Notes: a model not told the origin generated them from the letters alone. Positions 4,266 through 25,837 are shown, counted from the first letter of the stretch. The stretch: 53,524 bases of DNA from a virus (IMGVR_UViG_3300038365_000209:1-53524), one strand, 5' to 3'. Translations and numbers: made by a program.

Positions 4266-4276
4266 GTATATACCTC

Positions 4277-8540: not shown

Positions 8541-8561
8541 CCTTCTCGCCCCTTTTTCATG

Positions 8562-8945: not shown

Positions 8946-8956
8946 AATCTCACCTC

Positions 8957-9664: not shown

Positions 9665-9781
9665 GCCTTTCTGCGCTGCCTTATATATAAAAATTTGGAG
9701 AAACGGTAAGGCTTCCGCTTTCGCCCCGTCGAGCTATCTCCAAATCTCTACCGGGTTGAATCGCTGTGGAGTATGAGCCTG

Positions 9782-9920
9782 AAAATAAATAAAGCCCGAC
9801 AAACCGAATCAATCGGTCTATCGGGCTCAAATGGCCTCATTCCGCAGTATTATACTTTCAGTAGTTGTTTCTCGTTTTTCCTTATACCGTAAGTATAGCA
9901 TAGGGATGCGGAAAATTCAA
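9782..9920 (-). promoter_or_regulatory. Late control unit A: promoter + tandem boxes + terminator
   Basis: TTGAAT-17-TATACT (9920-9892); TGAGGCC-att-TGAGCCC (9839-9823) entering GCCCGA stem with TTTATTTATTTT tail. Confidence 0.65.
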
Positions 9921-9975
9921 TACAGGTTTGACTTTTTAATTTGTGGTGATAATATAAAGAAAAAGGAGGAATTCT

Positions 9976-10491
9976 ATGCGGAAAATATTTTTTGCCATGA
10001 TCGTGGCTATGACAGTAACGCTATTTTTTGGATGTCAGACACAGACCGTACAAACCAAGCAGGCTAAGCCGGATGAGCTTATCCCAATCGTAAATATAGA
10101 AAATTTAACAGAGCGAGAGTCCGCTTTTAATGAAGCAAAGCCATATACAAACGATGGGCTTATAAAAGGCATCTCTGCGGTCACAAAGAAAGTCAGCGTT
10201 TTTACTTCTGCGGATAATAGTTCCTTGTTGCTAATCGCTTTGCAATTTGACAAAGATACACCGCAAGAGGATGTTTCTGCATTTAAAGAAGCAATAAACA
10301 GTCTTTCTGATGCTGTCGTAAACAGCGGATATAAAATGTGTCAATTCTTTTTAATTTCAGACGGAGATATTAGAATGCAAACCGCTCCGTTATCTGTTTC
10401 AAGCGGGGGACTCGAAACAGCAAGCGCGTTTTTCAATTACTCTGGAAAGAGCGAAGTTGATACCCAATATGCAAACGCCGTAAATCAATAG
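9976..10491 (+). CDS. Lipoprotein moron (possible superinfection exclusion)
   Basis: Signal peptide ending LFFG-C; own promoter (TTGACT..TAATAT), AGGAGG RBS and terminator 10499-10530; opposite strand to tail genes. Confidence 0.7.
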   Translation: MRKIFFAMIVAMTVTLFFGCQTQTVQTKQAKPDELIPIVNIENLTERESAFNEAKPYTNDGLIKGISAVTKKVSVFTSADNSSLLLIALQFDKDTPQEDVSAFKEAINSLSDAVVNSGYKMCQFFLISDGDIRMQTAPLSVSSGGLETASAFFNYSGKSEVDTQYANAVNQ

Positions 10492-10676
10492 TAAGCGCAA
10501 AGCAGCCGGATATTTCGCCGGCTGCTTTTTATACAAAACTATTGTAACTTTGTTGAAAAATATAGAATCCATGCTATAATTGGAATTGCAAAGGGTCACG
10601 GGCGGTTCCTCCATTCCGAAGTGAAAGCTCTTTCTACGCTTGGGAGCATATAGCTCCTGGAATGGAGGTGAAGGGC

Positions 10677-10754
10677 ATGGAAATCCTCTATGCTGCTATT
10701 TTCCTTGTCGTAGCTACGGGATACATACTCGTGCTCGGCAAGGCAAAAAAATAA
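10677..10754 (+). CDS. Type I toxin, 25-aa hydrophobic peptide (not in ORF track)
   Basis: MEILYAAIFLVVATGYILVLGKAKK*; GGAGG RBS paired by upstream CCTCCATTCC; promoter TTGAAA-16-TATAAT 10553-10580. Confidence 0.8.
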   Translation: MEILYAAIFLVVATGYILVLGKAKK

Positions 10755-10833
10755 CCGCCCCCCAGCCAAGGTTAGCGGTTATTTATCGCGCTTTGGGCTG
10801 TCTGCTTCGGCAGATGGCCCTTTGCTTTTTCTA
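10745..10833 (-). ncRNA. Putative antisense antitoxin RNA
   Basis: TTGACA (10867-10862)-17-TACAAT (10844-10839) facing the toxin 3' end; AAATAACCGC/GCGGTTATTT hairpin plus U-run terminates it; ends approximate. Confidence 0.7.
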
Positions 10834-10925
10834 TCCCCATTGTATGCGTGGCCCATCGGTTTGTCAAGAGGATATTGGAAGTAATTCTTAGAAATGCTTC
10901 ATATTTGGATTCCTGACGATCTTCT

Positions 10926-13900
10926 TTATGTGGATTGCAGTCCAAGGTTAAAGCCCTGATTCGAATTCACCTTGTTCACGGTTTTTGCCACCGTCTTGCT
11001 ATCTACCTGAAGAGTGGTATCCTTTTCAGAAATCTTCTGCGCGACCTCTAAGATTTGCGCCAGCACCGTTGCAACGCTTTCATCGGGTTCTTCGACGGTC
11101 CCACTGGCGGTGCTTTGTGGCGCCACAACTGCAGGATTCGCGTAGCTTTCGGAATATCCTTCGGACCCGGAGGTCGGGCTTGCCGAAACCGTGCTGGTAA
11201 ATCGGTAATCAAATGCGGTGGGAACAGATTGAGCCATCAGTTTAGAAACGGCTTGCATATTGTCGGTAAAGCCCTTCCCAATACCGAGGGCGAGATTTTT
11301 ACCAATGACATCTGCGAAGACTTGCGATGGAGAATGGATGTGGAACTTGTCTTTGAATGTATCGATAATTCCCTCTGCGAAACTTTTTATTTTGCGTTTC
11401 AGCCAATCTGTTGCACCGTAAATTCCTTCCCATAGGCCTTTGACTATATTGTCCCCCATATCAGAAAACACGGTAGAGGGGGAATGAATCCCGAGAACAT
11501 CTTTAGCCCACTGGGGGAGCCATCCAAACATCTTCTTCCATAAAGGCTCGTCGTCCTGGATTTTCTTTTGCGCACTGCTCGAAAGAGCTGCGGCGGAATT
11601 TGCCCCTATATCTCCCATCTGCTTTTTCAGGTCGTTTTCCTTGCTCTTAGCTCCGGCCGCGGTATCGGTCCCCATTTTGGCACCGGCAAGTTCAGATGTG
11701 GTCTTTCCAGCTTTCTTGTTTTCCGTGCCGGTTACAAGACTGTTCGACATATTGATGCCAAGGTCCTGAAGGTTTTTCTTTAATGTAGGAGTAATCTCAA
11801 TCGTTTTCCCTGTCACAGTATCTCTAATTCCAATGATGGTTTTTCCTGAAGCGTCCGTCGCAAACTGGATATTATCGATAATTCCCTGTGCAGTGCTTTT
11901 GTCAACGTTTTTCCCCGCATCTTTCGCAGTCGCAAGCGTGTTTAAGAATGTCGGATCGGTAGAAAACTTCTTGCCGACCATATAATGAATTGCATCAATA
12001 TTCCCACCAATAGCTTTCAGCTGCTCAATATCGGAAATTCCCTTTGCGACATTGGTCGGGACAGCTTTCCCCGCTACCGTTGCGGAAGATGCGATCTGTT
12101 TCAAATCAGTTTCCGTAGGCTCCAAAGACGTAACCAAGCTCTCAATGTTCTTTCGCGCGGATGTAGAGATTTTCCCTGACCTCTCCATATCATTCAGTTC
12201 TTTTTGGTATGTGCCACTCACAGCATTTACGAGACCAGAAATAGATGTGGTATAGGTGCCTTTGGAATTGTCAATGCCGACTTTCCAGCCGGTTGACATG
12301 GCTTCTTGGACTCCGGAAGACCATACCGGTTGCGCAGATTTCAATTCGGAGCTGAATTTGCTGTTGACGGTATTCAGGCTGATTTCCAATCCAGAAAGCT
12401 CCAGCGTAGCTTTTTTGTTGTTAAAGGACTCCTGAACGTCCGCCAAAGACTGCTGATAAATTTTATCGGCATTTTCGACGTTATGCTCCTTATTATACTG
12501 ATATTGTGCTTCGATCTGCTCAATAACAGTAATTTTATTCTGGCTGGCCTGTTTAATCTCTTCCTGGATATTACTCTGAATTTTCGACTGTAAATCCTTG
12601 AAGCTATCTGCCGTAATTTCCGTGCTCTTTGTATCCAATTCAAGGGATTTCAAAGTAGCCTGATACTTCTGGTCGGCAATCTTCTGGAGAAGATCATTCA
12701 TCTTTTTCTGGATTTCCTGAATTTTGATAACTTCTCCCTCGGAAAGTACATTATCAGCGAAAGCCTTATTGACTTCGTTGGAAAGCTGGGTCCCCAGCTT
12801 ATCAAGCTCGGCCTGAGTATCGCTATAATACTTTGTCGTGAAAGCAGTAAGGTTCTTTGCCGTCGCAGACCCAGGCTCCAAAACAGCGTCGATAGCAAGA
12901 GACACGGCGTAATGCTGCTGTTGCACATAAGCTTTCGCGTCAGAAACAAAGCTGTTGATCGTTTCTTTATAGGTGCTCATTTCACTTTTGGAAAGTTTGA
13001 GCCCTACGGAAACTTCCCAATTCATTTTGTTCAGCGTTTCAATGTCGTTTTTGATATTTGTTTCGAGATCGGCGAGTTTGCTTTTCGCATCGATTGCCGC
13101 ATCAATCTTGATAGTCCACGGCGTTGTGGTGAGCCGCTTCGCAATATCTTCAACTTCGGAAGCAGAAAGAGAAATTTCGCCGAACCTTCTCGCAAGATCG
13201 GCTTTTACTGCCGCATCCTGAGCCTGCTTAATCCCAGCGGCGAGGCCGATAAAGGCTCCGGCCACAGCGGCGATAATCATTCCCTGTGGCCCAAAACCGG
13301 CCTGAAACGCAAGGCCAAGCCCGGTAACGGCTCCGGACAAACCCAAGAGCCCGGCGCTGAGCTCGGGAGAAAGATCATTCAGCTCTGCAAAGGTAGCCAG
13401 TGCAACACCAATCCCGACTGCGCCCGCAGTCCAATCCGTCAGCCCAAGCTTGAAGGCGAGTAGTCCAGCCGTCACGCCAGCCAGAAGTGATGGGGCAATC
13501 TGCATATCAGAAAAATGAATTGCAAGGCCAGATATGGCTGCGGAAACGGCTCCTATCGCCACGGCAAGCGGCAGATTATTCGTGAACGAAAATGCCAACA
13601 TACCGGCGCCAAGTCCTGTCAGGGCAGATGTCAGCAGATTGATAGCGTTGTCCGTGCCGAGAAGTTCGACCAAGCCGGATTCAAGGAGAGCAGAAATCCC
13701 GAGCGCCAATTTGAAAGGCATCCCGGTAAACTGCTTCAATACCAGAGCCCCACCCAGCGCGATCAGGCTTCCGTTCAAGAGATCAATCTTCGACTTCTGC
13801 GGAAGGAAGTGGGAGATTGCGGTCGCAATGGCCCCGATGGCGAGCGCCAGAATTGGATTCTTGGTCAGCCCATACGCCATGATTGCCGCGGCAATGCCGT

Positions 13901-15935
13901 TCAGGATATCCGCATAGTCCAGCATCGAAAGCCACTTTCCGAGTCCGCCGAACGCTCCGTTTACTCCCCAGAGAGCATCGGCAAAGGTTTTGAGAGGATC
14001 CTCTCTGAAAGCATCGATGAAGTCACGGATTTTCTTTTTTAGAGCATCAATATTGTTGCTTATCGCATCGGACAAGGCGTTATACGATGGGAGATCGATA
14101 CCTCCGAGAATATTTCCACCAGCCCCGCCCGCGGCTCCCGTACCAGAGCCGGCGCCGGCATCAGAATCATTATTGTCAGTTTGAAGGATATGTAGCTCGT
14201 CGAAACCGGAAATCAAGTTGTCCAACTCTTTCTTGGAATCTTTCGCCTTTTTCCCTACATCGCCGACGCCTTTGCCAACGTCGCCAAGGCTATCCGTGGC
14301 ATCATCTGCGCTGTTCGTAAGATCAGTCAAGGAGGAATAATCGATCTTTGGCATCTTGAATCCGAAGAAAGAAGCAATCTCGCTCGCCAATTCACCAATA
14401 ACTTCGACAACCGCGGTTACCGGAGGCAAAATTGCGAGTAACGCCGGAATAAAAATGCTGCCGATCGCACGACCGGTAATCTGAAGCTGCGCCTGAAGGA
14501 CACGGAGAGCATTGGCCGGGGTCAAAATCGTACGAGCCATATCACCTTGTGCGTTTGTGGTTTGCTTCATAATGGCGATGTAGCGGAGTTCTGCCTTGTC
14601 TGCCTCGGTAAGGTCCCTAACCTTCTCTTTGATTCCGAGATTGTAAAGCTCCTGTTGCAGCCGAGCATTCGAGGTGTCAATGCCGAGCTCGCGGATGGCG
14701 CGTACCTGCCCGGTGATTCCGGACTGCAATTTTTGAAATGCCTTTTCTGTACTTATATTGTAGAAGGATGCGATATCATAGCCAAGCTGAGTCATATTCT
14801 CCGACATGAGCATTGCCTGTTTGTTGGCAATCCCGAACGAAGTTGTCAACTGGGCGAATACGCCCATATACCGCATCGCTTCACCGGAATCGACTCCGAG
14901 GACGCTTTGCAGACTGTCCGCAAGTTTCCGCCCTTCTTGGGCAGACGTTCCCATGGCCACCGCAAAAAGGTTCTGGTTTTCTATGTAGGAATTGATATTG
15001 TTGATAAAACCGCCGAACGTGTTTGCAATCTGCCGGAGAATAAAGTACCAGCCATAAAAACGGCCCATAGAGAAAAGGCTGTTGGACGTTGTGCCGAGCG
15101 AGGCGAGTTTATCCTTTGCAGAGCTGACGGACTGCTTCAGGCGATCCATGAAGGACGCCGCCCGGCTGCTACCGCTGGAAACCGTGTTCATAGTGGTGGA
15201 GGCGGTTCCACCGAATTCGCCCATCGCTGCTTTCAGACTGTTTATGCTGGCCGCATTGATTTCCGAAGGCACATTCGTTGGCAGCGGTGCGACTCCCGGG
15301 CCGTAATCCGGCGCTACGGACTTCGGAATGCGGTCAGAAAGCTCTCCGCTGTATCCGGTTTTTGCCGCCCTTGCGACGGCATCAGCCAAGCTGTTCTGCG
15401 CATCCGCCGCCCATTTTGCAGATTCCTCGATCTTCGCGTTTTTATCTGCAATGGCCTGTAGCCCCTGCTCCGCCTTTGCAGATTTCAAGGTGGACTGATC
15501 TATCGTCGCCTGCGTTTTCGCGGCCTGCGCCTGCAATTTCAGCGCATTCATAGCTGTGCCACCATTGCCGGAACGGGACAACGCCGCCAAGTCTGAAATC
15601 ATGGTTTTCAGCGTCGGGTCCATTCCGCCGAGAGTTTTCAGAGAATCCGTCAGCGTCTTAATGCTCGCGGAAATTCGATCGGTTCGAGCATCATTTAGCT
15701 TGTTGATACTGTTGGCGAGAGAAGAAACCGAGCCAGACGCTCCCTTCATGTTTGCCAGATTTTTAGACAGCGTAGCGAGGGAAGCGGCGATACCGGTCAA
15801 TTCGCCGACACCGCCGCCTGTAACTGTTTTAAGCCTCTCAATGCTGGAAATCAGCTTATCCATGCCGGAAGAACTTTGCTTCGCCTCAGTATTGATCCTG
15901 ATATTCAGTTCGTCAATGGTCTGTTCGCCCGCCAT
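10926..15935 (-). CDS. Tape measure protein
   Basis: 1669 aa, Ala/Gly-rich helices, central hydrophobic repeats, two IHSPS motifs. Confidence 0.93.
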   Translation of the reverse strand: MAGEQTIDELNIRINTEAKQSSSGMDKLISSIERLKTVTGGGVGELTGIAASLATLSKNLANMKGASGSVSSLANSINKLNDARTDRISASIKTLTDSLKTLGGMDPTLKTMISDLAALSRSGNGGTAMNALKLQAQAAKTQATIDQSTLKSAKAEQGLQAIADKNAKIEESAKWAADAQNSLADAVARAAKTGYSGELSDRIPKSVAPDYGPGVAPLPTNVPSEINAASINSLKAAMGEFGGTASTTMNTVSSGSSRAASFMDRLKQSVSSAKDKLASLGTTSNSLFSMGRFYGWYFILRQIANTFGGFINNINSYIENQNLFAVAMGTSAQEGRKLADSLQSVLGVDSGEAMRYMGVFAQLTTSFGIANKQAMLMSENMTQLGYDIASFYNISTEKAFQKLQSGITGQVRAIRELGIDTSNARLQQELYNLGIKEKVRDLTEADKAELRYIAIMKQTTNAQGDMARTILTPANALRVLQAQLQITGRAIGSIFIPALLAILPPVTAVVEVIGELASEIASFFGFKMPKIDYSSLTDLTNSADDATDSLGDVGKGVGDVGKKAKDSKKELDNLISGFDELHILQTDNNDSDAGAGSGTGAAGGAGGNILGGIDLPSYNALSDAISNNIDALKKKIRDFIDAFREDPLKTFADALWGVNGAFGGLGKWLSMLDYADILNGIAAAIMAYGLTKNPILALAIGAIATAISHFLPQKSKIDLLNGSLIALGGALVLKQFTGMPFKLALGISALLESGLVELLGTDNAINLLTSALTGLGAGMLAFSFTNNLPLAVAIGAVSAAISGLAIHFSDMQIAPSLLAGVTAGLLAFKLGLTDWTAGAVGIGVALATFAELNDLSPELSAGLLGLSGAVTGLGLAFQAGFGPQGMIIAAVAGAFIGLAAGIKQAQDAAVKADLARRFGEISLSASEVEDIAKRLTTTPWTIKIDAAIDAKSKLADLETNIKNDIETLNKMNWEVSVGLKLSKSEMSTYKETINSFVSDAKAYVQQQHYAVSLAIDAVLEPGSATAKNLTAFTTKYYSDTQAELDKLGTQLSNEVNKAFADNVLSEGEVIKIQEIQKKMNDLLQKIADQKYQATLKSLELDTKSTEITADSFKDLQSKIQSNIQEEIKQASQNKITVIEQIEAQYQYNKEHNVENADKIYQQSLADVQESFNNKKATLELSGLEISLNTVNSKFSSELKSAQPVWSSGVQEAMSTGWKVGIDNSKGTYTTSISGLVNAVSGTYQKELNDMERSGKISTSARKNIESLVTSLEPTETDLKQIASSATVAGKAVPTNVAKGISDIEQLKAIGGNIDAIHYMVGKKFSTDPTFLNTLATAKDAGKNVDKSTAQGIIDNIQFATDASGKTIIGIRDTVTGKTIEITPTLKKNLQDLGINMSNSLVTGTENKKAGKTTSELAGAKMGTDTAAGAKSKENDLKKQMGDIGANSAAALSSSAQKKIQDDEPLWKKMFGWLPQWAKDVLGIHSPSTVFSDMGDNIVKGLWEGIYGATDWLKRKIKSFAEGIIDTFKDKFHIHSPSQVFADVIGKNLALGIGKGFTDNMQAVSKLMAQSVPTAFDYRFTSTVSASPTSGSEGYSESYANPAVVAPQSTASGTVEEPDESVATVLAQILEVAQKISEKDTTLQVDSKTVAKTVNKVNSNQGFNLGLQST

Positions 15936-16296
15936 GTAAATTCGCCTCCGCCATCTGAGCTTCTAACTTCCGCTGAAATTTGATTGCACTCTGTTCCCGA
16001 ATCTCCTGCATCTTCGCATTGTGCTCCGCGATCGCGTCCTCCATCTCCTGCCGCTTTTTCTCCTGCTCCGGAGTAAGCGGAACAATCGGCTTTTCGGGAT
16101 AGCTGGACTTGCTATTTGGCGCACAAGCCACAATTGCACGGGTGATGTAGGCTCCATGGAGCCACGCCACATAGTTTTCATTTCTCTTCTGCAGTTCGTG
16201 GGATGCGGCATATTGCAAATAGGCGCTTATTGGCCCATGCCAGTAAAGATCGTACGGCATCCCCCAACTAAGCGCCTTTGCACACCGGTTGCTCAA
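15913..16296 (-). CDS. Tail assembly chaperone, second ORF (gpT-like)
   Basis: ALSWGMPYDLYWHG...AWLHGAY; directly before tape measure; true start uncertain. Confidence 0.7.
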   Translation of the reverse strand: MSNRCAKALSWGMPYDLYWHGPISAYLQYAASHELQKRNENYVAWLHGAYITRAIVACAPNSKSSYPEKPIVPLTPEQEKKRQEMEDAIAEHNAKMQEIREQSAIKFQRKLEAQMAEANLHGGRTDH

Positions 16297-16346
16297 AATC
16301 TGAGCGAATCGCTTCTGACCGCCCTTTAGCGGGTCTTCGGAATCGT

Positions 16347-16718
16347 CTAAATCTTCGGACCCTTGACTTCCGGACTCGGCAGGGCCGTAAACTTCTTCTT
16401 CGTTTTGCCCTTCCGGTCCTTCGAGGTAAAAAGCATGGAATACGCCCTAATGAACTCATCCGTGATTTCGCTGAACGCATCCGGGCCGTATTCCTCATCC
16501 TTCACGACGGCCTCGAAGAACTCGCGGGCTTTCTGCCGGGTCGTGAACGGATGATTTTTCTGAACGGACCAGAAGAAGCACTCGAACGCGAAATCTACCG
16601 GTTTGTCTGTCAGGGCAAGAACGCCCGCGCTCTGGCATTTGAGAACCGTATCGGTGTCGAATTCCGCAAGATAGTCGTGCCCGCCATAGGAAACCTGGAT
16701 TTTCTGAAAATCGATCAT
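16347..16718 (-). CDS. Tail assembly chaperone (gpG-like)
   Basis: Between major tail and tape measure genes. Confidence 0.7.
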   Translation of the reverse strand: MIDFQKIQVSYGGHDYLAEFDTDTVLKCQSAGVLALTDKPVDFAFECFFWSVQKNHPFTTRQKAREFFEAVVKDEEYGPDAFSEITDEFIRAYSMLFTSKDRKGKTKKKFTALPSPEVKGPKI

Positions 16719-16787
16719 TTTGCATTCTCCTTTTTATTTTCAAAAATGCAGGGCCGGGAAGGGCCCTGCTTGAATCAAGCGGATGAA

Positions 16788-17249
16788 TCAGGCCCCGCCG
16801 GTCGCAATGGCCGCTTTCGTGCGGGCGCCCTGCGGATAGATAGGCCAATCGACTTCATCGAGTGCACCCAGTTCGCCGCTCGGCGTAGCCAGTTCGTCAA
16901 CGGTAGTCGCCTTGAACGTGATGGTGTATCCACGCTTCGGGTATGTGACGCGCATCCAGAAGAAGCCTTTTTCCGGATCGTTCTGATCCGTCACCATTGC
17001 CGTGTGTGCGGTCAGGAAAGCCAAATCGGGAGCAACCTTGAACGTGAACGCGTCCGCCTTTTCAACCCCCGCAACAGATGATGCCTTATCGTCCGTGACG
17101 ACACTGCAATCTACGGCATCCGGAGTCGGGAATAGGTTCGGAATAGAACGGACAGAATGCTCAATCTTCGTCCAGCCTGTTTCAACAGCGGGCGCCGTTT
17201 CAGAAAAAGGCGCATACTCAACGATAAAACTCTTGATAACGTCAGCCAT
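16788..17249 (-). CDS. Major tail tube protein
   Basis: 153 aa, SIPNLFPTPDAVDCS; followed by a hairpin; position. Confidence 0.75.
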   Translation of the reverse strand: MADVIKSFIVEYAPFSETAPAVETGWTKIEHSVRSIPNLFPTPDAVDCSVVTDDKASSVAGVEKADAFTFKVAPDLAFLTAHTAMVTDQNDPEKGFFWMRVTYPKRGYTITFKATTVDELATPSGELGALDEVDWPIYPQGARTKAAIATGGA

Positions 17250-17262
17250 GTAAAATTCCCCC

Positions 17263-17688
17263 TTATCTTTGGATTGATCTCAAAATTATGTTTGTCCGTG
17301 TATCAATGTAGGCGAAGTAATTCGCTACCGCCCGGAAAATTGTCGTGTCGCTGTACGGTGCGGCCTGAATCTGGCCTATCATGGTGAGACCGTAGGCTTC
17401 ATTCAGGAAGTCGTCCGCCTCCATAATGAGCTTGTAGGCCGCATCCCGTTTCGGCGTGATAACGCCCTGAATGGACATATCCTTCGCATAGGCTTCCAGC
17501 GTGAGGACGTTCCGCACCACGCACGGCAGGCCGTCAATATAGGCCCCATCGTTGCTCGGCAGTTCGTCCAGCGTCAGCATCGGGCAGGCCGGAGATTTGA
17601 CCGAATAGGCCGCTTTCACGCTCACCTTATCAAGCGTGAACGTGTGCGCTTTTAGCGCCGCGATAATGTCAGAGCCGATCAGAATCAT
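17263..17688 (-). CDS. Tail terminator/completion protein
   Basis: Size and position before tail tube gene. Confidence 0.6.
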   Translation of the reverse strand: MILIGSDIIAALKAHTFTLDKVSVKAAYSVKSPACPMLTLDELPSNDGAYIDGLPCVVRNVLTLEAYAKDMSIQGVITPKRDAAYKLIMEADDFLNEAYGLTMIGQIQAAPYSDTTIFRAVANYFAYIDTRTNIILRSIQR

Positions 17689-18203
17689 TTCAGCGCCTCT
17701 TTCGCAACCGGAACGATGTTGTCCCGCATGGTGATGGCCGCGCGGAGGACCTGCTTTTGTGCAGGAATGCCGTTTGTAGTGCGCCAGTGCCCTTTAAGCC
17801 GGTCATAGTAGTGCCACATCATCTTGCCGTTTTTCATCTTCCGGATGTTCTTGCCGGAGCCGTAATGCCAACCGGCGACCGCATATTTGGGGTGCTTGTT
17901 TGCCGCGCCCTGCTCGCCCGTGCCGTATTCACAAAATGCCACCTGGGGACCTTTTTCAAAGACTTTCGCTGAATTTCCCTCGACCTGCATTCCGACCGTC
18001 CCAGGCGCGTTGCCGTCCGGGTCGGTGATTCCGGCGATGTTCTGCTGAATGGCCTCGGCCCCAATTTCCGCAAGCCCTTCGACAATCTTCACTGGTGCCG
18101 CATCCACCTTCGCCTTGTAGGCTTTCACATCGGAAAGGAGCTTGTCGAGAGAGGCAACCGAGAGGTCAGCGGAATAATCAGGCATCAGCTGTTCACCTCC
18201 CAC
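17685..18203 (-). CDS. HK97 gp10-like neck protein
   Basis: VAFCEYGTG ... TTNGIPA motif. Confidence 0.75.
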   Translation of the reverse strand: MGGEQLMPDYSADLSVASLDKLLSDVKAYKAKVDAAPVKIVEGLAEIGAEAIQQNIAGITDPDGNAPGTVGMQVEGNSAKVFEKGPQVAFCEYGTGEQGAANKHPKYAVAGWHYGSGKNIRKMKNGKMMWHYYDRLKGHWRTTNGIPAQKQVLRAAITMRDNIVPVAKEALK

Positions 18204-18399
18204 TATCAGGTCGGCTAATTACGAACAACCCGAAAAGAACGGAAAGAACGCCCCACAAATTTGTTTTCCAGCAAGATAGAAACAGCATTGTTTCCGTGTA
18301 TTCGGGGTGAGTGAAGCGGAAGGCGTAGTTAAAAGAAGCGAGCAAAGCAATGCCTACAATCAGCAGGAGCCAAGCGGCAGTTTTGAGAATTTTCATCAT
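18193..18399 (-). CDS. Small two-TM membrane protein within head-tail genes
   Basis: Two hydrophobic segments; coupled to neighbours. Confidence 0.55.
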   Translation of the reverse strand: MMKILKTAAWLLLIVGIALLASFNYAFRFTHPEYTETMLFLSCWKTNLWGVLSVLFGLFVISRPDSGR

Positions 18400-18752
18400 G
18401 ATTCGCTTGCCATCCTTTCAAACACGATTTCCTCGACACGGTGCATGGGTAAGACCGAAGAAACTTTAAAATCGGCCCCAGCGCAGAGCGGGTCCGACGT
18501 TTCAGGCGGGTCCACATATACATAGCACCGGTCACCCTCCACGTATGGATCCCCGCCGATAAGCTGCTTTGCAATCAGGTTTTTGGTGTTGACCTCGCCG
18601 ACCGTTTGCAGCATCATTTCCGCGTCCAGCGTCCGGAAGTTCAGGTAGCGGATGACCGGGGCCTCAAAAGTTTCCATATTCTCCTGATATCCTTCGTCAT
18701 CCGGCGTCAAGCGGCGGCAGTAATAGAGAGGCTTTTTGTTGCGTTCAAGCAT
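18396..18752 (-). CDS. Head closure/adaptor protein
   Basis: LERNKKPLYY, ADFKVSSV; position. Confidence 0.6.
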   Translation of the reverse strand: MLERNKKPLYYCRRLTPDDEGYQENMETFEAPVIRYLNFRTLDAEMMLQTVGEVNTKNLIAKQLIGGDPYVEGDRCYVYVDPPETSDPLCAGADFKVSSVLPMHRVEEIVFERMASES

Positions 18753-19056
18753 CGCGTATCACTCCAAGCCTCGGAATTACTCCGGCCAGCCACGTAGGGG
18801 CCGTCTCATAGTTGATCTGTTCGCCGTTCTCACTGATGGACTGAGCGCCCTCGGTGCCGATCCGGGAGAGATAATAAACAGCCCCTTCAATCTGGTTCAT
18901 CTGGTACTGATCTTCCAGCGCGTCTGCTCCGCGCCGCTTCAGAATTTCGGAGGAAGCCCAGGACAGGGCGTAGTTGAGCAGATCGTCGTTATCCGCATAC
19001 CGCGACAAATCTGTATTCGCGGCAAGCAGGATTTTCAGAGTGTCAATCTGCGCCAT
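18745..19056 (-). CDS. Head-tail connector (gp6/gp15-like)
   Basis: SRIGTEGAQSISENG motif. Confidence 0.8.
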   Translation of the reverse strand: MAQIDTLKILLAANTDLSRYADNDDLLNYALSWASSEILKRRGADALEDQYQMNQIEGAVYYLSRIGTEGAQSISENGEQINYETAPTWLAGVIPRLGVIRDA

Positions 19057-19077
19057 ATCCTCGCCTCCAATGAGTTA

Positions 19078-20385
19078 TCAGACTTTCGCCGCGACCGTCG
19101 CTTCGCCAGCTTTGCGGGCGTGACCATCGGCGTTGATCTCGACAATAACGATCTTCTGTCCGGTCGTCGCCGTGATTTCGTCGGTGCCATTCCATGCGGT
19201 ATAGCCCTGCGAAATGAGCTGGTCGTAAACCGGCATCGTCGGATTGGCCGCCAGTTTATATTTATAGCTGTTACCACTGCCAAGCGCCGGAGAAACCGTA
19301 ATTGCGGTCTTGCCGGAAGCCGCACCCTCTGCAGACGTTACCGTCAGGATGCCAAGCGTATCCTGCGAAACCTTCGCAATGAACAAGCCCTGCGGATCAG
19401 GCAGCACCGGGATAAACAGGCCGGAAGCCTTTGTCCACACAGCCACCGGGTCCGGCGTCGCCCACTGGGTAATGGCGATGTACTGACGGGCGGATTTCGC
19501 GGTCCAGGGGCCCTGGGCCTCTTCTTCGGGCGTAACGCCCCAAAGGCCGGTGCCAATTGCGCCGTTCGCGCCGACGGTATAAAGGGAGAAGGTGTTGCGG
19601 TCGAAATACCGCTCGGACTTCTTTGCGCCGTCGCCGCTTTCATAGCTGTACACGGCGTCGTTTACGACGATGAAGAATCCAAACATCTCCTGCATCAGGG
19701 CGTTGATCTGCGTAAGGCCGGGCATGACGCCTTGCATGTAGATTCCGCCGATTGCTTTCTGGATCGCGGTGTTCTTCCGAATCTTCATCAGCACAGCAGA
19801 GGAAGTCTTTGCCCGTACCGGATTCTTTCCGATGCTGTGAGCATAATCGATCATTCCTTGAACGTCACCGAGAATATCGTGATCCGGGTCGTCCCAATCC
19901 AGCGTAAAGTGGTTGTCCTCCGGAACGCCGTAATCCACCTCGAAATCAAGACCGTTTTCATTGACGGTCATCTTACCTTTTGAGAGGACTTCCATCTTTG
20001 CAACCTCGGTGCGAGTCTTAACGTTCTCTGCCAGACGGCCGGCATCGTTAAAAATGTACTGAAGCAGGGATTCGGTCCCGGCGACTCCCTTGTTCTTCAA
20101 AAGCTGGACACGCTCGGTCTGATTGATTTTCTCCTTAATCAGGAGCTTTTCAATCGTGACCTTCTCGGCGGTCGGGCGCTTGCCGATATGGGCTTCCGTG
20201 TCGAACGCATGAACGAGAGCCGCGGTCGGAAGCTGGAGCGAATCCGACAGGCGGTAATATTCCGCTTCAAGGTACTGCGTTTTCACATCCGGAAATTCAC
20301 GGTCGCCGTCGTAGTTGCGGACGATGTTGAAGTTCTGCGAAAAGTCCAGCCGGTCTTTGTCGGTCAGAGCAGTTAAAATATCCAT
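19078..20385 (-). CDS. Major capsid protein (lambda gpE-like) with C-terminal Ig-like extension
   Basis: FDTEAHIGKR, VDYGVP, DPVAVWTKASGLFIP; then LTVTSAEG...YKYK beta domain. Confidence 0.88.
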   Translation of the reverse strand: MDILTALTDKDRLDFSQNFNIVRNYDGDREFPDVKTQYLEAEYYRLSDSLQLPTAALVHAFDTEAHIGKRPTAEKVTIEKLLIKEKINQTERVQLLKNKGVAGTESLLQYIFNDAGRLAENVKTRTEVAKMEVLSKGKMTVNENGLDFEVDYGVPEDNHFTLDWDDPDHDILGDVQGMIDYAHSIGKNPVRAKTSSAVLMKIRKNTAIQKAIGGIYMQGVMPGLTQINALMQEMFGFFIVVNDAVYSYESGDGAKKSERYFDRNTFSLYTVGANGAIGTGLWGVTPEEEAQGPWTAKSARQYIAITQWATPDPVAVWTKASGLFIPVLPDPQGLFIAKVSQDTLGILTVTSAEGAASGKTAITVSPALGSGNSYKYKLAANPTMPVYDQLISQGYTAWNGTDEITATTGQKIVIVEINADGHARKAGEATVAAKV

Positions 20386-20386
20386 G

Positions 20387-20737
20387 CTATCTCACCATCC
20401 CTGTTGCAGTTTCGATTCCTACACCGCCGTAACCGTTCGCTGCCATGGCGGTAACAGCCGCGGCAACCGGCGTAACCGGCAGACGGTTTCCGAGAACGTG
20501 GCCACCAACAATGACGGGGCCCTCATGATCCCCCGCCGTGACATCCACTGGCTCATAGAGAATCCCGATGGCCGTGTTGTCGTTCGCCGGGAAAACCGTG
20601 CCGGCCGGTACGATCTTTTTACTTCCGTCCTGAATCCCCATGGACTGGGGAAGCTGCTTCGTGACCGTTCTCAGCCCTACCGCGCTCGCAAGGAACGACG
20701 GCATTTGGCTGTAAGTTTCTGTATAAATATGGCTCAA
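20387..20737 (-). CDS. Head decoration protein
   Basis: KIVPAGTVFPAND.TAIGILYEPVDVT...RLP. Confidence 0.75.
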   Translation of the reverse strand: MSHIYTETYSQMPSFLASAVGLRTVTKQLPQSMGIQDGSKKIVPAGTVFPANDNTAIGILYEPVDVTAGDHEGPVIVGGHVLGNRLPVTPVAAAVTAMAANGYGGVGIETATGMVR

Positions 20738-20753
20738 TTTTTATCCCTCCGTT

Positions 20754-21335
20754 TTACTTGCCCTGCGCCGCGCCGGCCGCAGGATTCGCCGGGGCTGCGG
20801 CAAATTGCGCATTGTAAGCCTGCGCCATCTTCTCCCCGATACTCGGCTCGGTACCGCCCTGACCGCCTCCGGTTCCGCCGCCCTGCAGGCCGGGCGTGTC
20901 TTTCAAAAGCTGTTCTTTGATCTGGGCCTGAAGCTGTTTTTCATGCTCGGTCGCGTACTTCGTATGAGTCTCGGTGAACTTCTTCATGTCACCGTTTGCC
21001 ATTGCGTCCGCGAGGTCCACAGCCGTTTTTGCATCGTAGCCGCCGGCCAAAAACTGCTTTTCAAACTTCATCTGGTTGTTTTCCTTCTGAAGCGCGGCAA
21101 TCTGATCCTGAATTTCCTTCTGCGCTGCGGCAGCCGCCTCGTCGGTGGTCTGCTTCTCTTTGAGCTGCTTTTTCGCTTCCGCAAGGTCATGCGCCGTCTT
21201 GTCAAAATCTGTTTTTGGAACCGACGGAGCCAGCGTGGAAGGATCGACGAGGTTTTTGTCCTTCAGGAGAGCGTCGATATCGGGCAGCGTCATGTCGTCT
21301 TTGAAATTTTCGCCAAGCAAAGTTTTCAGGTCCAT
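20754..21335 (-). CDS. Scaffolding protein
   Basis: Helical, MDLKTLLG start after GAAAGGA RBS, between portal and capsid. Confidence 0.75.
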   Translation of the reverse strand: MDLKTLLGENFKDDMTLPDIDALLKDKNLVDPSTLAPSVPKTDFDKTAHDLAEAKKQLKEKQTTDEAAAAAQKEIQDQIAALQKENNQMKFEKQFLAGGYDAKTAVDLADAMANGDMKKFTETHTKYATEHEKQLQAQIKEQLLKDTPGLQGGGTGGGQGGTEPSIGEKMAQAYNAQFAAAPANPAAGAAQGK

Positions 21336-21364
21336 AGATTTTTTCTTCCTTTCGCGATTGTTGA

Positions 21365-21437
21365 GGCGGTTCTCTCCGCCATTTTGCATTTTTACGACTT
21401 CTTTGTCGTTTGCGCTTTTATCGTGTATCTCCACACG
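21365..21437 (-). repeat. Three tandem 5-bp-stem hairpins with RRAGAW loops in scaffold leader
   Basis: CGTGT-GGAGAT-ACACG, ACGAC-AAAGAA-GTCGT, GGCGG-AGAGAA-CCGCC at 28-29 nt spacing. Confidence 0.7.
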
Positions 21438-21451
21438 CCCGCATCTGCGGG

Positions 21452-21591
21452 AAAATAAAAAGAGGCCGAACCGTCAGGAAACTCCTGACAACTCGGCCTC
21501 ATAGGGCTCATCGCGTTGGTATTTACTTTTTGTATAACTGTTTAAATTAATTCTATACCATGAGTATATTATTGATTTGCGGCTTTGTCAA
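21452..21591 (-). promoter_or_regulatory. Late control unit B: promoter + tandem boxes + terminator
   Basis: TTGACA (21591-21586)-17-TATACT (21568-21563); TGAGCCC-ta-TGAGGCC (21510-21495) entering GAGGCCGA stem with TTTTTATTTT tail. Confidence 0.7.
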
Positions 21592-23071
21592 GCGGTTGGT
21601 TGCTGTTTTGCAGATTATTATCGTTTTGCTGGCTGTTTGGATCGCCGCCGTCAGGATTTTCAGGCTGCTTTGTTGCGGCCTCGGCCTGCCTGCGCTTCTT
21701 TGCGGCCACCCAGCGCGCCGCAAGGCCCTGAACGTCCTCGGTGATGCCCATGTGCTCCACGGTGTCCGTTTCGTCAAAGCCCATATCGTCCATCCCCTGA
21801 CCGGCCTGCACCTTCGTCTGAAGATTTTCGTCCTTGTTGCGTGGGATTTTGATGCCGATGTCTAGGGGCGTGATCTCGCCGGATATGTACTTCGGGGAAA
21901 GGATGTTCAGCACGATTTTCAGAAAGCGGCGCTCCGACATTTCCGTGTACATTGCTTTCGTTTTCGCCACGGTGTCGATTTCGCGCCAGCCGTTCTTCGC
22001 GTTGATTGCTTCGCCCGTGTCCCCGCCGCCGGAGCTGTTGCGGTCCGGGATGCCGAGAGACATGCGAAGCGCGTCCTCGAAATATGCCCGCAGGAGGTTG
22101 ACGGAATTGCCGTCGATCTGCGCGGTAATGAATTTCGCGTCCTGATTGATGCCGGGAGCGCCCTTGAAAACGAGAATCTGGTTTTTCTTTGCAGACGCAA
22201 TATCCGCCGTATCAGGGTCCACTCCAAAGAGTGCGAGATAAGACTTGACGCACTGCTCCACGTCGTTCACGCTGTCGGAGGCGATGTCATTGATCGCGTC
22301 GAAAAGGCTGATCGCAAGCTCCCAGTCCCCGAGGCGAAATTCGTTGTTGGGGTACTCGATGATCGGAATATCGCCCAAAATATGCGGTTTCTCCGAAACA
22401 AAATCGGTCGGCTGCACGCTGCGGTTTGAGGAAGAATTGTAGGTGAATTTCTCGTAGGCCGTATAAATCTGATGAATGTAGCGTTCCTCTCCGTCCGGCT
22501 TTTTCACTTTGAAGCAGTTCCACGCATAGACCGGCCGGTTGCCGTTGTAAGCGGAGTAGGCGACGAACGTATTGAAAATATCCATTGCATAGATTTCAAG
22601 GGGAGATTCATCAAACTGCACCGTGTCGGGCAGCACGGCGCGGTAATGCGTTCCGAAGATGGATTGTTCGTCCGCCATGATTTTGTCGAAAGCGATCTTG
22701 TTCTCTGCTCGGAGGAAGCGGTTGATCGTTTCCACGTCCTTCAGGTAGTCCATTTTGTTCTGGACGAGGATAATCCCGTTCGGATAGGTGTATCCTACAA
22801 TGTCCCGCGTGAAAGCGTTCGGGTACGGGATTCCCACCATGTTGTTGACAAGGCGGTCCTCGCCAGACCGGAGGAAAATTTTCTGCTTGTTCCTGTAGAT
22901 GTCAAGCAGCTTGTGTTCTTCTGCGCTGTTTTTCGCATGGATCATCAGGGCATCGTTCAGCTCGCCCGGAAGGGTGTTCCGATCGAGCGTCGAGCCGATA
23001 AAGCCCGGCTGCTGCATCTGCACCGGCAGGCATGATGTCGTGATCTTTCGGCGGCCGTGAAGTAATTCCAT
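21569..23071 (-). CDS. Portal protein (SPP1 gp6-like)
   Basis: IPIIEYPNNEFRLGDWE.AISLFDAIN..ASDSVNDVEQ. Confidence 0.92.
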   Translation of the reverse strand: MELLHGRRKITTSCLPVQMQQPGFIGSTLDRNTLPGELNDALMIHAKNSAEEHKLLDIYRNKQKIFLRSGEDRLVNNMVGIPYPNAFTRDIVGYTYPNGIILVQNKMDYLKDVETINRFLRAENKIAFDKIMADEQSIFGTHYRAVLPDTVQFDESPLEIYAMDIFNTFVAYSAYNGNRPVYAWNCFKVKKPDGEERYIHQIYTAYEKFTYNSSSNRSVQPTDFVSEKPHILGDIPIIEYPNNEFRLGDWELAISLFDAINDIASDSVNDVEQCVKSYLALFGVDPDTADIASAKKNQILVFKGAPGINQDAKFITAQIDGNSVNLLRAYFEDALRMSLGIPDRNSSGGGDTGEAINAKNGWREIDTVAKTKAMYTEMSERRFLKIVLNILSPKYISGEITPLDIGIKIPRNKDENLQTKVQAGQGMDDMGFDETDTVEHMGITEDVQGLAARWVAAKKRRQAEAATKQPENPDGGDPNSQQNDNNLQNSNQPLDKAANQ

Positions 23072-23085
23072 AAATTATCCCTCCA

Positions 23086-24927
23086 TCAAAACAAGGCCGA
23101 GCGCGGCAAGGTGAGCAGTGCCGGTCCGTTCCCGCTTTCAAGTACATTCGTAACGAGCGAAGCCGTTGCGTCAGCGGCGTCGTCCTTCTGCCGGCCCTGA
23201 TATTTCGCACTCTGGTTGAACTTCGTAAGATGTTCAATGTATTTGTTATACATTTTCCCGCCGTCCGGAAGCTTTTTCCGAGCTATCCGGGAAAGGAAAT
23301 GGAGCCGCACCCCGTTTTCTCCTTCTTCTTCCGGAATAATGCCTTTGATTTCGCTCTGGCAGGCGAGAATTCTGCTGAGCTTGCTCTTTGTGGAAGGCGC
23401 TTTTATTGAAGTGATATTGCAGCGATAATTTCGTTTCCGCAACTCGGAATCCACCTTGTCGGAATACTCTTTTCCGCCGTTGTCGGCCTCCATGAAGCCC
23501 TTGACGCAGTGATAGCTTGTAATCTTCTCAATTACCATTGGGCGGGTTGTCTCTTTCGGAGCGTTTATGTGAATCACGTCCACAATGTAAGCATCCTGTC
23601 CGTATTGCTTTGCAATCGGCATTGAGAAGAAGTCCCCGCCGCCCCATGCAATATCCGCCGCGAAACAAACAAGGTCCGGTTCGCCCGCCGGGAGCTGATC
23701 CGCATCGAATTTCAGGCTGCTTTCCTCGAAAACGAGTCCCTGCCGCTCTAGGCCATTCTGCTGAATCAACGCCTGAAAGTCGTAAGGGTCCATCAGGGCC
23801 TTGTCCTGCTGAAACATCTCGTCGGTATAAGCGAGCTTCCCATAATATCCTGAAAAATTGCTCTTTCCGGTTTCCTCGTTGCCTCCGGGGATGCGAATTT
23901 CCGTCAGCCGGTCCGGATAATGCTCTTTGAAAAATTCGATGATCTGGCTCATGGGATCGTCGCTTGCAAAAATAGTCCCGATGAAAAGCAGGTTGCATCC
24001 GCCCTGCATACGTTTCAGGACATCGGACTTCAGCCGGTTTGTTTTCTTCTCCATCAGGTCCGGGTTGCTGCTTTCAGCGGTATCTTTCACAACGTCGTCG
24101 ATGTAGAGCGTCCCACGGGCGCGGGTGCGGCCGGTGATGGAGCTATCAAATCCGACGCAGTAAAGGGTAGATTCGGAATGAAGAGCTTTCTTTCCGTCGT
24201 TGCGGTAATCCAGTGTCAGGGTATCAGCATTGGAATAGACCTGCCGGATGGCCGGAAAACTCTCCTGATATTCGTCGCTCTCGATGATCGTATTCACGCC
24301 GGTGAAGAATTTGTCCTTTGCAATGGACGCGGCATAGGAAAGCATCATGTTCGGCAAATTCGGATTTCCGCCAATCTGCCATGCCATATACCGCTTCCCG
24401 CACTCGGTTTTCCCCATCCCTTGCGGCATCGAAAGGGTCAAAATGTGCCTTTTCTGCTGGGAAAACCATTGTAGCTTCTCCGCAATCGGGCCGAGAACGG
24501 AAATGCGGGGAGTGTAGAACTTTTCTTCCATGTTGACAATCTGTCGGCCATTCTCGTCTACGGAAATGCCCTGGTTCCACTCTAGGCAGAGCAGAAAGTG
24601 ATGAAAGCTGTAGGGCGCGAGTAACACATGGGCCTTATGAAAGTGGTAATTGACTGCGCTGGCCCGCTTCGGGTCGATGCCGATCAACTGTTTGGACGAG
24701 CTTTTCGCCATGTCGATCAGTTCCCGACACGTCGCGCACATCATGTCCGTGTCGCCGATGGTCTTGTAGGATTCCGCGAGCTTCCCCATGATGACGGACC
24801 GTTTGTAAATCTCCATGCGGGAATTGCCGAGCCGATGGGAGAGCTCCTGAATGTCCTTCTCCGCCTGCTGCTTTTTGAGGGAGAGAGTGACCGCCGAATC
24901 AGGCCGGATTGCCTGTCTTTTGTTCAT
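23086..24927 (-). CDS. terL: Terminase large subunit
   Basis: LSMPQGMGKT Walker A, ITGRTRA..LYIDD, DIAWGGGDF, KDDAADA. Confidence 0.9.
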   Translation of the reverse strand: MNKRQAIRPDSAVTLSLKKQQAEKDIQELSHRLGNSRMEIYKRSVIMGKLAESYKTIGDTDMMCATCRELIDMAKSSSKQLIGIDPKRASAVNYHFHKAHVLLAPYSFHHFLLCLEWNQGISVDENGRQIVNMEEKFYTPRISVLGPIAEKLQWFSQQKRHILTLSMPQGMGKTECGKRYMAWQIGGNPNLPNMMLSYAASIAKDKFFTGVNTIIESDEYQESFPAIRQVYSNADTLTLDYRNDGKKALHSESTLYCVGFDSSITGRTRARGTLYIDDVVKDTAESSNPDLMEKKTNRLKSDVLKRMQGGCNLLFIGTIFASDDPMSQIIEFFKEHYPDRLTEIRIPGGNEETGKSNFSGYYGKLAYTDEMFQQDKALMDPYDFQALIQQNGLERQGLVFEESSLKFDADQLPAGEPDLVCFAADIAWGGGDFFSMPIAKQYGQDAYIVDVIHINAPKETTRPMVIEKITSYHCVKGFMEADNGGKEYSDKVDSELRKRNYRCNITSIKAPSTKSKLSRILACQSEIKGIIPEEEGENGVRLHFLSRIARKKLPDGGKMYNKYIEHLTKFNQSAKYQGRQKDDAADATASLVTNVLESGNGPALLTLPRSALF

Positions 24928-25475
24928 ACGGCCCTCGCCCCGGTTCCTTCCCGGAGGGCAACATCTCTACAAGCGTCGCGGACATGCCTCGTTATATACA
25001 TAATCCATCTAATTGAACGGTTGTGATCCTTTGCGATCTGCTTAAGTGTTTTCCCGCTTGTCCATTCAACAAATACTGCCTTTTGCTCTTCCTTTACTTT
25101 TGCTTTTTTTAGGCACTCGCGGGCAAAAATCGCATCTTCCGAATTTTCCATATCGAAATCATCAGATGGAAGAAAGTCCGCGAGGGTTCTATCTTCATCA
25201 TAAATTGGAGCGTCAATACTGATTCTCGGCCTCAAATAATGGCTATCTGTCCTTTTCCAATAGCCTAATTCATTCCTTATTGCCTGAATGGCATAAGAGG
25301 CAAATGTCGCTCCCTTTTCGGGGTCGTACTTTGCCGCAGCCTTGCACAAGCCTATGGCCGCAAGGTCATAAAAATCATCAACAGGATAATGGAACCTCTT
25401 CAGAGCGAAGAATATAAGCTTTTGATTATCCTCGACGAGCTTCTTCTGTTCGGCTGTCAGCATCATACTCACCAC
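24924..25475 (-). CDS. Phage sigma-70-family sigma factor (region 2 + HTH)
   Basis: DFYDLAAIGLCKAAAKYDPEKGATFASYA...IRNE; ISIDAPI; TLKQIAK. Confidence 0.85.
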   Translation of the reverse strand: MVSMMLTAEQKKLVEDNQKLIFFALKRFHYPVDDFYDLAAIGLCKAAAKYDPEKGATFASYAIQAIRNELGYWKRTDSHYLRPRISIDAPIYDEDRTLADFLPSDDFDMENSEDAIFARECLKKAKVKEEQKAVFVEWTSGKTLKQIAKDHNRSIRWIMYITRHVRDACRDVALREGTGARAV

Positions 25476-25741
25476 GCAATTCTGTTTGGTGTCAGTGCCC
25501 CGTTTCGGACGGGCAAGCCCCGGCCGCTGCCGTGCTCGCTGGCATATCTGCGCCGCCCTGTCATAAGCGGCGCATCAAAAAAGGGAGGAACCCGATACAT
25601 ATCGCCTCGGCGCCGGGCGATTGAAGCTATTCAGCGGTTCGCGCGCCGCTTAACAGCATATTTCGCGCCCTGTCCACCCAAAACAGGGCGCGTATATAGA
25701 AAGGAGGGACGCTACACGTCCTTGATCGGTATAAGCTTGAT

Positions 25742-25837
25742 AAAATAAAAACGCCGGCAACCGCAAATGCGGAAGCCGGCGTCATGCGCTCACAAAGCTA
25801 TCTGGTTATATTATACAATGAGTTGTAGACTTGTCAA
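25742..25837 (-). promoter_or_regulatory. Late control unit C: promoter + tandem boxes + terminator
   Basis: TTGACA (25837-25832)-16-TATAAT (25815-25810); TGAGCGC-a-TGACGCC (25792-25778) entering ACGCCGGC stem with TTTTATTTT tail. Confidence 0.7.

Follow-up and report, generated by a model that had tools for sequence, protein, structure and literature searches.

How would a phage switch on its lytic operons if the promoter placed before each of them ran almost at once into a strong terminator? This question is raised by IMGVR_UViG_3300038365_000209, an entire IMG/VR provirus record of 53,524 nucleotides (nt) which was analysed over its whole length (hereafter, the window) and which carries its lytic genes on the - strand. 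The initial annotation of this DNA had described three - strand sites with a shared layout of promoter, leader, box and terminator, and all three, here called units 1 to 3, are present at the positions given in Table 1. According to our analysis, they belong to a conserved, repeated cis-regulatory module of a few prophages whose hosts are fermentation bacteria, and its existence as a cis-element is well established. The best reading of its function that we can offer, which we consider quite possible and hold as tentative, is that the units are promoter-proximal terminators which would be opened by a trans-acting factor locking a mini-antiterminator formed by two short segments, box 1 and box 2.

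At each of the three sites, a near-consensus sigmaA-type promoter is followed by a short AU-rich leader, a GC-rich box and a strong intrinsic terminator, the latter recognizable by a GC-rich hairpin with a U tract directly behind it. In all three units, the box 2 heptamer forms the 5' base of this hairpin, which is two-tiered. The RNAs of units 1, 2 and 3 have folding energies of -30.9, -31.8 and -29.6 kcal/mol, respectively (z-scores of -4.55, -4.33 and -4.60), and for each of them 0/200 shuffled sequences folded as well. The lone heptamer TGASSSC occurs in the window at chance frequency (59 matches vs 55.9 +/- 7.3 in shuffles); the tandem pattern TGAGSSC-N1-4-TGASSCC is found three times on the - strand, only at the three units, and 0 times on the + strand, with 0 matches to a reversed control pattern and about 0.1 pairs expected by chance, as estimated from the density of single heptamers. 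When the whole window was scanned with the Rfam covariance models (E <= 5), no family matched at the units, and the sole overlap was with IS102 RNA (26.6 bits vs a gathering score of 46, E 1.7). A fourth promoter-plus-hairpin site, at 10867-10740, was considered as a family member and rejected, since it is without box 1 and without a match to the model of the unit described below. This stretch (10740-10867, - strand) contains a strong promoter, TTGACA-17-TACAAT, reading into two hairpins, one of which is the reverse complement of the terminator of the + strand moron at 9976-10491, and it may yield an antisense RNA.

The two heptamers of each unit had been interpreted as tandem TGASSSC boxes. 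The heptamer pairs do lie where they had been placed, but they are not true direct repeats, because their GC cores are complementary (GGC/GCC, GCC/GGC and GCG/CGC in units 1, 2 and 3) and not identical; the direct-repeat reading was thus rejected, and the boxes are, on present sequence grounds, better read as an inverted repeat than as tandem protein-binding direct repeats.

Loci of related phages were gathered by portal-based searches, which gave seven lineages including the window, with portal identities of 56-100%, and units were identified in them by a promoter-to-terminator scan, by a covariance model built from 13 units and by inspection. The expectation that the units are conserved in relatives, and do not reflect chance, was borne out by 18 copies in the seven related lineages: three in the window, two in G001/L001, where the contig stops before site 1, one in L061-63, two in L055/L002/L105, one in L054, four in G003 and five in G002. 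The unit behind the portal gene is present in 7/7 lineages, and five further units in relatives were recovered by the 13-unit model at 22-68 bits. The same model gave no full-length match of at least 30 bits in the loci of five lineages with 40-48% portal identity, nor in the more distant loci searched. The named relative nearest to the window is a prophage within a Caproiciproducens metagenome-assembled genome (MAG). DNA similarity to deposited phages amounted to only two small matches, and of two scans of genome contigs the first returned none and the second one MAG, while a search of IMG/VR with the leader-plus-box pattern returned eight stretches, namely three already known, one new L055-type copy and four chance matches in coding sequence.

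The evidence that bears most directly on the function of the boxes comes from scoring their pairing in register, which was done by a script; the model-based alignment shifts box 1 of the site-3 units by two columns. In 14/15 distinct units, box 1 consists of GA plus the exact reverse complement of nucleotides 3-5 of the terminator 5' arm, located 6-8 nt upstream of the terminator stem. The exception is a G002 unit on the reverse strand, which has a shifted CUUC/GAAG pairing. The same rule holds in 0/146 non-cognate box/arm pairings and in 0/32 control promoter-proximal terminators from unit-less phages (3/32 under relaxed rules). The cores fall into four covarying types (CGC in seven units, GCC in five, GGC in two and TGC in one), and further core pairs among the units are GGCUU/AAGCC, GCGC/GCGC and GCAC/GUGC. 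Summed over the units, cognate complementarity reaches 53, vs 46.3 +/- 2.5 with permuted arms, a value attained in 32 of 5000 permutations. The terminators covary as well, with compensatory changes at 12 of 16 consensus pairs in 13 sequences; their upper stems vary freely and the CCG/CGG of the lower stem is invariant.

Several box pairs form short and almost perfect palindromes, and the box region could instead be a site in double-stranded DNA, either a roadblock or recombination site for a serine-recombinase-like protein or the border of an invertible promoter. In line with this, a gene with a Resolvase domain (194-251 amino acids [aa]) lies 0.6-3.4 kb upstream of unit 3 in 5/5 records with that region and in 0/16 unit-less loci, a co-occurrence which may, however, merely mark the clade. 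Half-site sequences are not the same in all units of a genome, their spacing varies by at least 2 base pairs (bp), the arms of the palindromes are 3-6 bp only, and in G003 the recombinase gene is interrupted by a stop although the four units of this phage stay intact. The invertible promoter was rejected, there being no inverted repeats flanking the promoters. Since half-site sequence and spacing or loop length vary while complementarity is kept, we read the region as an RNA structure and deem a sequence-specific site in double-stranded DNA extremely improbable.

A truncated RNA folds into the box 1/box 2 hairpin in 15/15 distinct units. The hairpin has a stem of 3-5 bp and a loop of 3-7 nt, with energies of -2.2 to -6.5 kcal/mol, vs -21 to -29 kcal/mol for the terminator stem by itself, and its 3' strand is the base of the terminator 5' arm, so that it has the overlap with this arm that is typical of antiterminator hairpins of the RAT type. 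The box region is, as judged from its sequence, positioned to interfere with terminator folding, and this position together with the covariation therefore makes a design of constitutive promoter, default termination and factor-dependent read-through plausible.

In the mechanism that we propose, each unit would be a self-contained "gated promoter." The host sigmaA-type promoter would fire, RNA polymerase would reach the strong intrinsic terminator after 25-65 nt, and the default product would be an RNA of 55-100 nt, leaving the operon silent. Box 1, viewed as UGA or AGA plus 3-6 nt exactly complementary to the base of the terminator 5' arm (box 2), would pair with the latter first and occupy the bottom of the terminator stem, which is possible because the polymerase reaches the 3' arm only after both boxes have been transcribed. 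The terminator stem always outcompetes the mini-hairpin in energy, hence termination would be the default, and since the mini-hairpin alone is unable to compete with the terminator, we infer a trans-acting clamp during lytic growth. This clamp would most likely be an early RNA-binding protein of the phage, recognizing the conserved flanks UGA ... CCGR; the clamped state would leave the upper stem alone, too distant from the U tract to terminate, and the polymerase would then read into the operon. A conserved element able only to weaken a terminator suggests regulated read-through by a hairpin-clamping factor, and the presence of its own matched box 1 at every terminator fits a per-terminator (passive) antitermination. 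We infer promoter activity, default termination, conditional read-through and the existence of a protein factor alike from the sequence; a search for RNA sequencing runs containing positions 18500-26500 of the window returned none.

Several observations weigh against this mechanism. The hairpin is very short, and the loose criterion of at least three cross pairs, which is passed by 15/15 distinct units vs 11/32 controls, is also passed by 76% of composition-preserving (mononucleotide) shuffles of the upstream 14 nt, for which reason we do not rely on it; the discriminating power lies in the in-register tests only. The units are phylogenetically related, and the four core types correspond to about three independent compensatory switches. 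If antitermination acts per terminator and on any transcript, the promoter in each unit is left unexplained. Finally, the search for a trans-acting factor, in which 74 open reading frames (ORFs) of the window were compared with the relatives by tblastn and ORFs were scanned with Pfam, PHROGs and NCBIfam, detected no known antiterminator or RNA-binding antiterminator domain among the scanned ORFs of the window and no known antiterminator domain in the early region of the related prophage G002, while the non-structural proteins detectably common to the four larger records by tblastn are only terS and the serine-recombinase-like protein. The trans-acting factor may be encoded by the host, or it may be a small protein that evolves fast.

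The promoters, which are near-consensus and of the sigmaA type in 18/18 units (scores of 9.5-12.5 on a scale with a maximum of 12.5), would be accounted for by processive antitermination loaded at the promoter, in the style of lambda Q at PR'-tR' or of Pseudomonas AlpA, since such factors load at promoters. A DNA-binding factor would then load onto RNA polymerase at each unit promoter, the adjacent and later terminators would be ignored, and the box hairpin would be incidental or auxiliary. The PR'-tR' layout, with a strong constitutive-type promoter, a short leader and a strong terminator before lytic genes, agrees with this explanation, and so does a -10-like hexamer located 5 nt after the -10 box in 9/18 units vs 9/36 controls, at what we take to be the position of the sigma-dependent pause element of the lambda literature. 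This enrichment is, however, weak, no shared motif was seen in the -35/-10 spacers when the 18 units were inspected, and neither Q, AlpA nor another antiterminator family was found in the scanned ORFs. Moreover, such loading would leave unexplained why box 1 covaries in register with the terminator arm, and overall we regard promoter-loaded antitermination as unlikely.

All units (18/18) sit directly before the next gene and in the same orientation as it. They had been considered specific to late genes, a view that is contradicted by the relatives: in G002 and G003 a unit is also found ahead of the primase/terS operon, and one G002 unit, on the opposite strand, heads a divergent accessory cluster with a Bro-N-like gene. 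The units are therefore not confined to late structural genes.

A promoter, a short RNA and a terminator are also the anatomy of a small-RNA gene, and the units could contain no conditional switch at all, being small-RNA genes and/or fixed leaky insulators. They would then produce constitutive RNAs of 55-100 nt, maybe acting in trans, their terminators would block read-through from upstream operons or morons, residual leak and amplification of the genome would account for late expression, and the role of box 1 would be to tune terminator efficiency only. In Stx phages, the terminated RNA that starts at PR' functions as a small RNA in its own right (PMC7547250). Among our units, the leader segment AAAUAYCACGNAA is kept in many, and hot spots of accessory genes, where insulation would be useful, lie just before or after units 1 and 3 (the MqsR/MqsA/SecB-like module, the sigma factor and T5orf172 in the window; DarT/Macro/DUF4062 in G002; a Tad2-like gene in L001). 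However, the elements common to all units are the promoter, UGA/AGA plus box 1 and the terminator only, and the single-stranded leader differs between paralogues and thus offers no common seed. No antisense target of the unit RNAs was found in the window (the best were of 10-12 nt, E 0.14-0.97). A conserved terminator-weakening element makes little sense in a pure insulator, and the position directly before a co-oriented gene, which the reversed unit shares, likewise speaks against the explanation without a switch, which is in our opinion improbable.

Returning to a clamped box 1/box 2 hairpin, the initial annotation had proposed that the zinc-ribbon ORF at 31491-31745 encodes a Com-like, RNA-binding antiterminator of the boxes. 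The ORF does contain two CxxC pairs. It encodes a small protein and, lying immediately ahead of terS, follows an activator-type promoter with phased repeats as its first ORF; a homologue occupies the same place in the closest relative, G001. In G002, an unrelated zinc ribbon of 66 aa reaches as far as the unit 3 promoter. The Com-like identity, in turn, could not be upheld, with 9.6 bits (E 0.84) for the Pfam model PF10122 (Zn_ribbon_Com) vs a cut-off of 22.9 and 12.8 bits for the G001 homologue vs the same cut-off. The ORF has no relative in PDB, and its family comprises five proteins among 5.8 billion, i.e., the ORF itself and four relatives. Nor was the gene found to accompany the units throughout. 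Of three related records searched, G001 alone yielded a homologue; none was found in G002 (a 2.9-Mb MAG with five units) or G003 (a 24-kb fragment with four units), nor in the region preceding unit 3 in L055/L002. Because tblastn can miss small proteins and G003 is only a fragment, the link between the zinc finger and the units is unsupported rather than disproved, and we think it very unlikely that this protein is the antiterminator.

The zinc finger had been embedded in a cascade leading from an activator through the Com-like protein to the structural genes. Its first step fits the activator-type region found directly upstream of the zinc-finger and terS genes and downstream of the sigma-region-4-like regulator gene, where 10-nt-phased repeats stand ahead of -10 boxes, whereas the Com step is unsupported. 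For the regulator gene (33500-34024), no curated family model of ArpU/RinA-type late activators passes its cut-off; it scores 18.8 bits with Pfam Sigma70_r4 (cut-off 24.1) and 23.6 bits with NCBIfam sigma70-ECF (cut-off 42.9), and matches PHROG 36, "transcriptional regulator," with an E value of 1.3e-9. The repeats are arrays of AGCC with an exact 10-nt period on the - strand, nine copies at 32211-32294 and four copies at 31916-31949, each ending about 15-20 nt ahead of a TATAAT box. Their 24-nt spaced pattern has nine matches vs 0 in shuffles and was found in no other locus; in G001, arrays of another word (TGAAAC-like) occupy the same two places. The arrays look like activator-dependent promoters, or a pac-type site, with a repeat that changes along with the adjacent sigma-region-4-like regulator. 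Between them lies a noncoding leader of about 280 nt with a terminator-like hairpin, similar by eye in G001.

Another small protein deserves mention as a speculative regulator candidate, the basic, Cys-rich early protein of 85 aa encoded at 49061-49318 (- strand), which is without family assignment; it is shared with G002 (L093 8600-8887, 43% over 49 aa), and no counterpart was found in G001. Look-ups of this protein and of the zinc finger in the ESM Atlas were uninformative.

The gene order of the window, from the immunity region onward, is included in Table 1. ORF family scans showed that the gene blocks behind the three sites had been assigned correctly; the sigma-factor gene ahead of terL scores 51.6 bits with NCBIfam sigma70-ECF vs a cut-off of 42.9.

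Table 1. Positions of the units and of the genes around them in the window
Feature	Position	Strand	Remarks
Unit 1 promoter	9892..9920	-	TTGAAT-17-TATACT, 9/12 plus TG (TG-extended)
Unit 1 box 1, TGAGGCC	9833..9839	-	GGC 9836-9834 pairs with GCC 9826-9824 of box 2
Unit 1 box 2 heptamer, TGAGCCC	9829-9823	-	
Unit 1 box 2, intrinsic terminator and U tail	9782..9829	-	Stem 9828-9792; 16 pairs, 8 GC
Unit 2 promoter	21563..21591	-	TTGACA-17-TATACT, 11/12; overlaps 3' end of portal gene
Unit 2 box 1, TGAGCCC	21504..21510	-	GCC 21507-21505 pairs with GGC 21498-21496 of box 2
Unit 2 box 2 heptamer, TGAGGCC	21501-21495	-	
Unit 2 box 2, intrinsic terminator and U tail	21452..21501	-	Stem 21500-21462; 18 pairs, 10 GC
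Unit 3 promoter	25810..25837	-	TTGACA-16-TATAAT, 12/12
Unit 3 box 1, TGAGCGC	25786..25792	-	GCG 25789-25787 pairs with CGC 25781-25779 of box 2
Unit 3 box 2 heptamer, TGACGCC	25784-25778	-	
Unit 3 box 2, intrinsic terminator and U tail	25742..25784	-	Stem 25782-25751
Immunity region and serine integrase	Right end of window		First in gene order
Recombination and replication genes			After immunity region
Sigma-region-4-like regulator gene	33500-34024		After recombination and replication genes
Zinc-ribbon ORF, 84 aa, CxxC...CxxC	31491..31745 (31491-31745/31907)	-	After sigma-region-4-like regulator, just upstream of terS-like gene; link to units not supported
terS-like gene	30836-31639		GP3_package, weak match
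Serine-recombinase-like gene, 250 aa	27513-28265	-	Accessory stretch before unit 3
MqsR/MqsA/SecB-like module	25878-27355	-	Same accessory stretch, before unit 3
Block after unit 3	21569..25475	-	Sigma factor 24924-25475, terL 23086-24927, portal 21569-23071
Scaffold-like gene	20754..21434	-	First gene after unit 2; real start probably later than 21434
Block opened by scaffold-like gene	Ends at 10926	-	Decoration, capsid, up to tape measure
Small moron region	Between tape measure block and unit 1		
Block after unit 1	2894..9664	-	T5orf172 gene 8957-9664, distal tail genes, endolysin 2894-3889

Further elements were noted next to the units. Between the unit 1 terminator and the T5orf172 gene lies an int-alpA RNA motif of Rfam (9679-9744, - strand; 48.6 bits vs a gathering score of 35.8), and the motif together with T5orf172 looks like an insertion, because unit 1 directly precedes a tail gene in G002 and G003. 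Between the unit 2 terminator and the scaffold-like gene (about 21400-21450, - strand), a small conserved hairpin whose loop contains GGAG is followed by an A-rich segment; this element recurs at homologous positions in L001, L006, L052 and L105 and is kept down to 56% portal identity. Behind unit 3, a conserved noncoding segment with a GC-rich hairpin is found at 25660-25740 (- strand) in the window, at 2722-2800 in L001 and at 2760-2830 in L002, and in L001 it stays on the terL side of the gene inserted after the unit.

The short serine-recombinase-like gene between terS and unit 3 occurs, besides the window, in L094 (5547-6302), L098 (6598-7359) and L002 (301-885), and downstream of it each phage has different accessory genes. 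In the window these are a weakly matching MqsR-like toxin, an MqsA-like antitoxin and a SecB-like chaperone, which look like a tripartite toxin-antitoxin-chaperone system, while the same slot in G002 (L094 6421-9438) holds Macro and DarT (DarTG-like) and a DUF4062 protein. The gene directly behind unit 3 varies too, being a sigma-70-family factor in the window, a gene with a Tad2-like (Thoeris anti-defence) domain in L001 (2320-2721) and a 74-aa ORF in G002; L002 has no gene there and, as judged by eye, a tRNA-like sequence. Elsewhere in the window, 45983-46417 (- strand) encodes a protein of 144 aa that is made up solely of a Spo0A C-terminal DNA-binding domain (Pfam Spo0A_C, E 1.3e-30) and might modulate the control of sporulation in the host.

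In temperate phages that infect Gram-positive bacteria, RinA/ArpU-type activators are usually credited with the control of late genes (PMC3753634). A multi-copy cassette of promoter plus attenuator would be a different solution, and the literature searched yielded no account of one in phages of Firmicutes. A wider claim, which we consider somewhat doubtful, is that host sigmaA promoters, each locked by its own terminator, drive most of the lytic programme in a clade of Clostridia phages, and that one hairpin-specific RNA-binding antiterminator unlocks them all by clamping a 3-5 bp mini-hairpin between UGA and CCGR. If true, this would be a new class of phage master switch in the form of a portable cassette of about 100 bp, holding under its lock replication, packaging, head, tail/lysis and even a divergent accessory operon. 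A real switch predicts that the antiterminator can be obtained with a 25-nt RNA bait, and the compact cassette (about 100-140 bp) could be put to use in Clostridia as a module for regulated expression. Accessory genes of these phages, namely toxin-antitoxin modules, a sigma factor and a Tad2-like gene, also gather at the places marked by the units.

Among known systems, the units resemble the PR'-tR'/Q arrangement of lambda and Stx phages, in which a constitutive-looking host-sigma promoter (for PR', see PMC7547250) has a strong intrinsic terminator within about 100 nt, before lytic genes, and a short RNA (6S/StxS) is the default product. A constitutive-type promoter close before a terminator upstream of late genes is likewise predicted in 18/18 units. 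Lambda and Stx phages have, however, one copy, vs three to five per genome here, Q needs no upstream complement of the stem base, whereas each of our terminators carries a matched one, and the hosts here are Gram-positive Clostridia. No Q-family antiterminator gene was found among the ORFs scanned with PHROGs, Pfam and NCBIfam, a search which very divergent proteins could escape. The presence of several promoters per genome, each followed by an intrinsic terminator that is bypassed via a dedicated factor, recalls Pseudomonas AlpA, whose target is a DNA element lying between -35 and -10 and which is active at heterologous terminators (PMC7969949). The units, in contrast, were without a shared spacer motif on inspection, and their conserved covarying element lies in the transcript, at the terminator.

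In the BglG/SacY/LicT RAT and the ANTAR systems, a weak hairpin whose 3' half is the terminator 5' arm is useless without a protein clamp, and the same logic would apply to the box 1/box 2 hairpin. A RAT is about 29 nt long and ANTAR targets are two tandem hexaloop hairpins, whereas the units have a single hairpin of 3-5 bp with a loop of 3-7 nt, and their promoter belongs to the repeated module. The scanned ORFs contain neither a Pfam domain of CAT/PRD proteins (BglG/SacY/LicT type) nor an ANTAR domain, and Rfam gave no match to such elements at the units. The zipper attenuator of the pLS20 family is similar in that a Gram-positive mobile element gates a long operon through an upstream leader segment that is complementary to the terminator and competes with it, though it involves a single 456-nt leader and a long stem extended into the antiterminator (PMC13401043). 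The leaders of the units are of 25-65 nt, and their tiny hairpin is repeated at every operon. Mu Com, a small CxxC...CxxC phage protein like the product of the zinc-ribbon ORF, acts on an mRNA hairpin as the translational activator of mom, i.e., on translation and not on termination, and the zinc-ribbon ORF stays below the Com threshold and was not found in most unit-bearing relatives examined. The design of the units thus differs from each known system in the missing cognate protein, in copy number, in the tiny covarying hairpin or in the promoter placed within the module.

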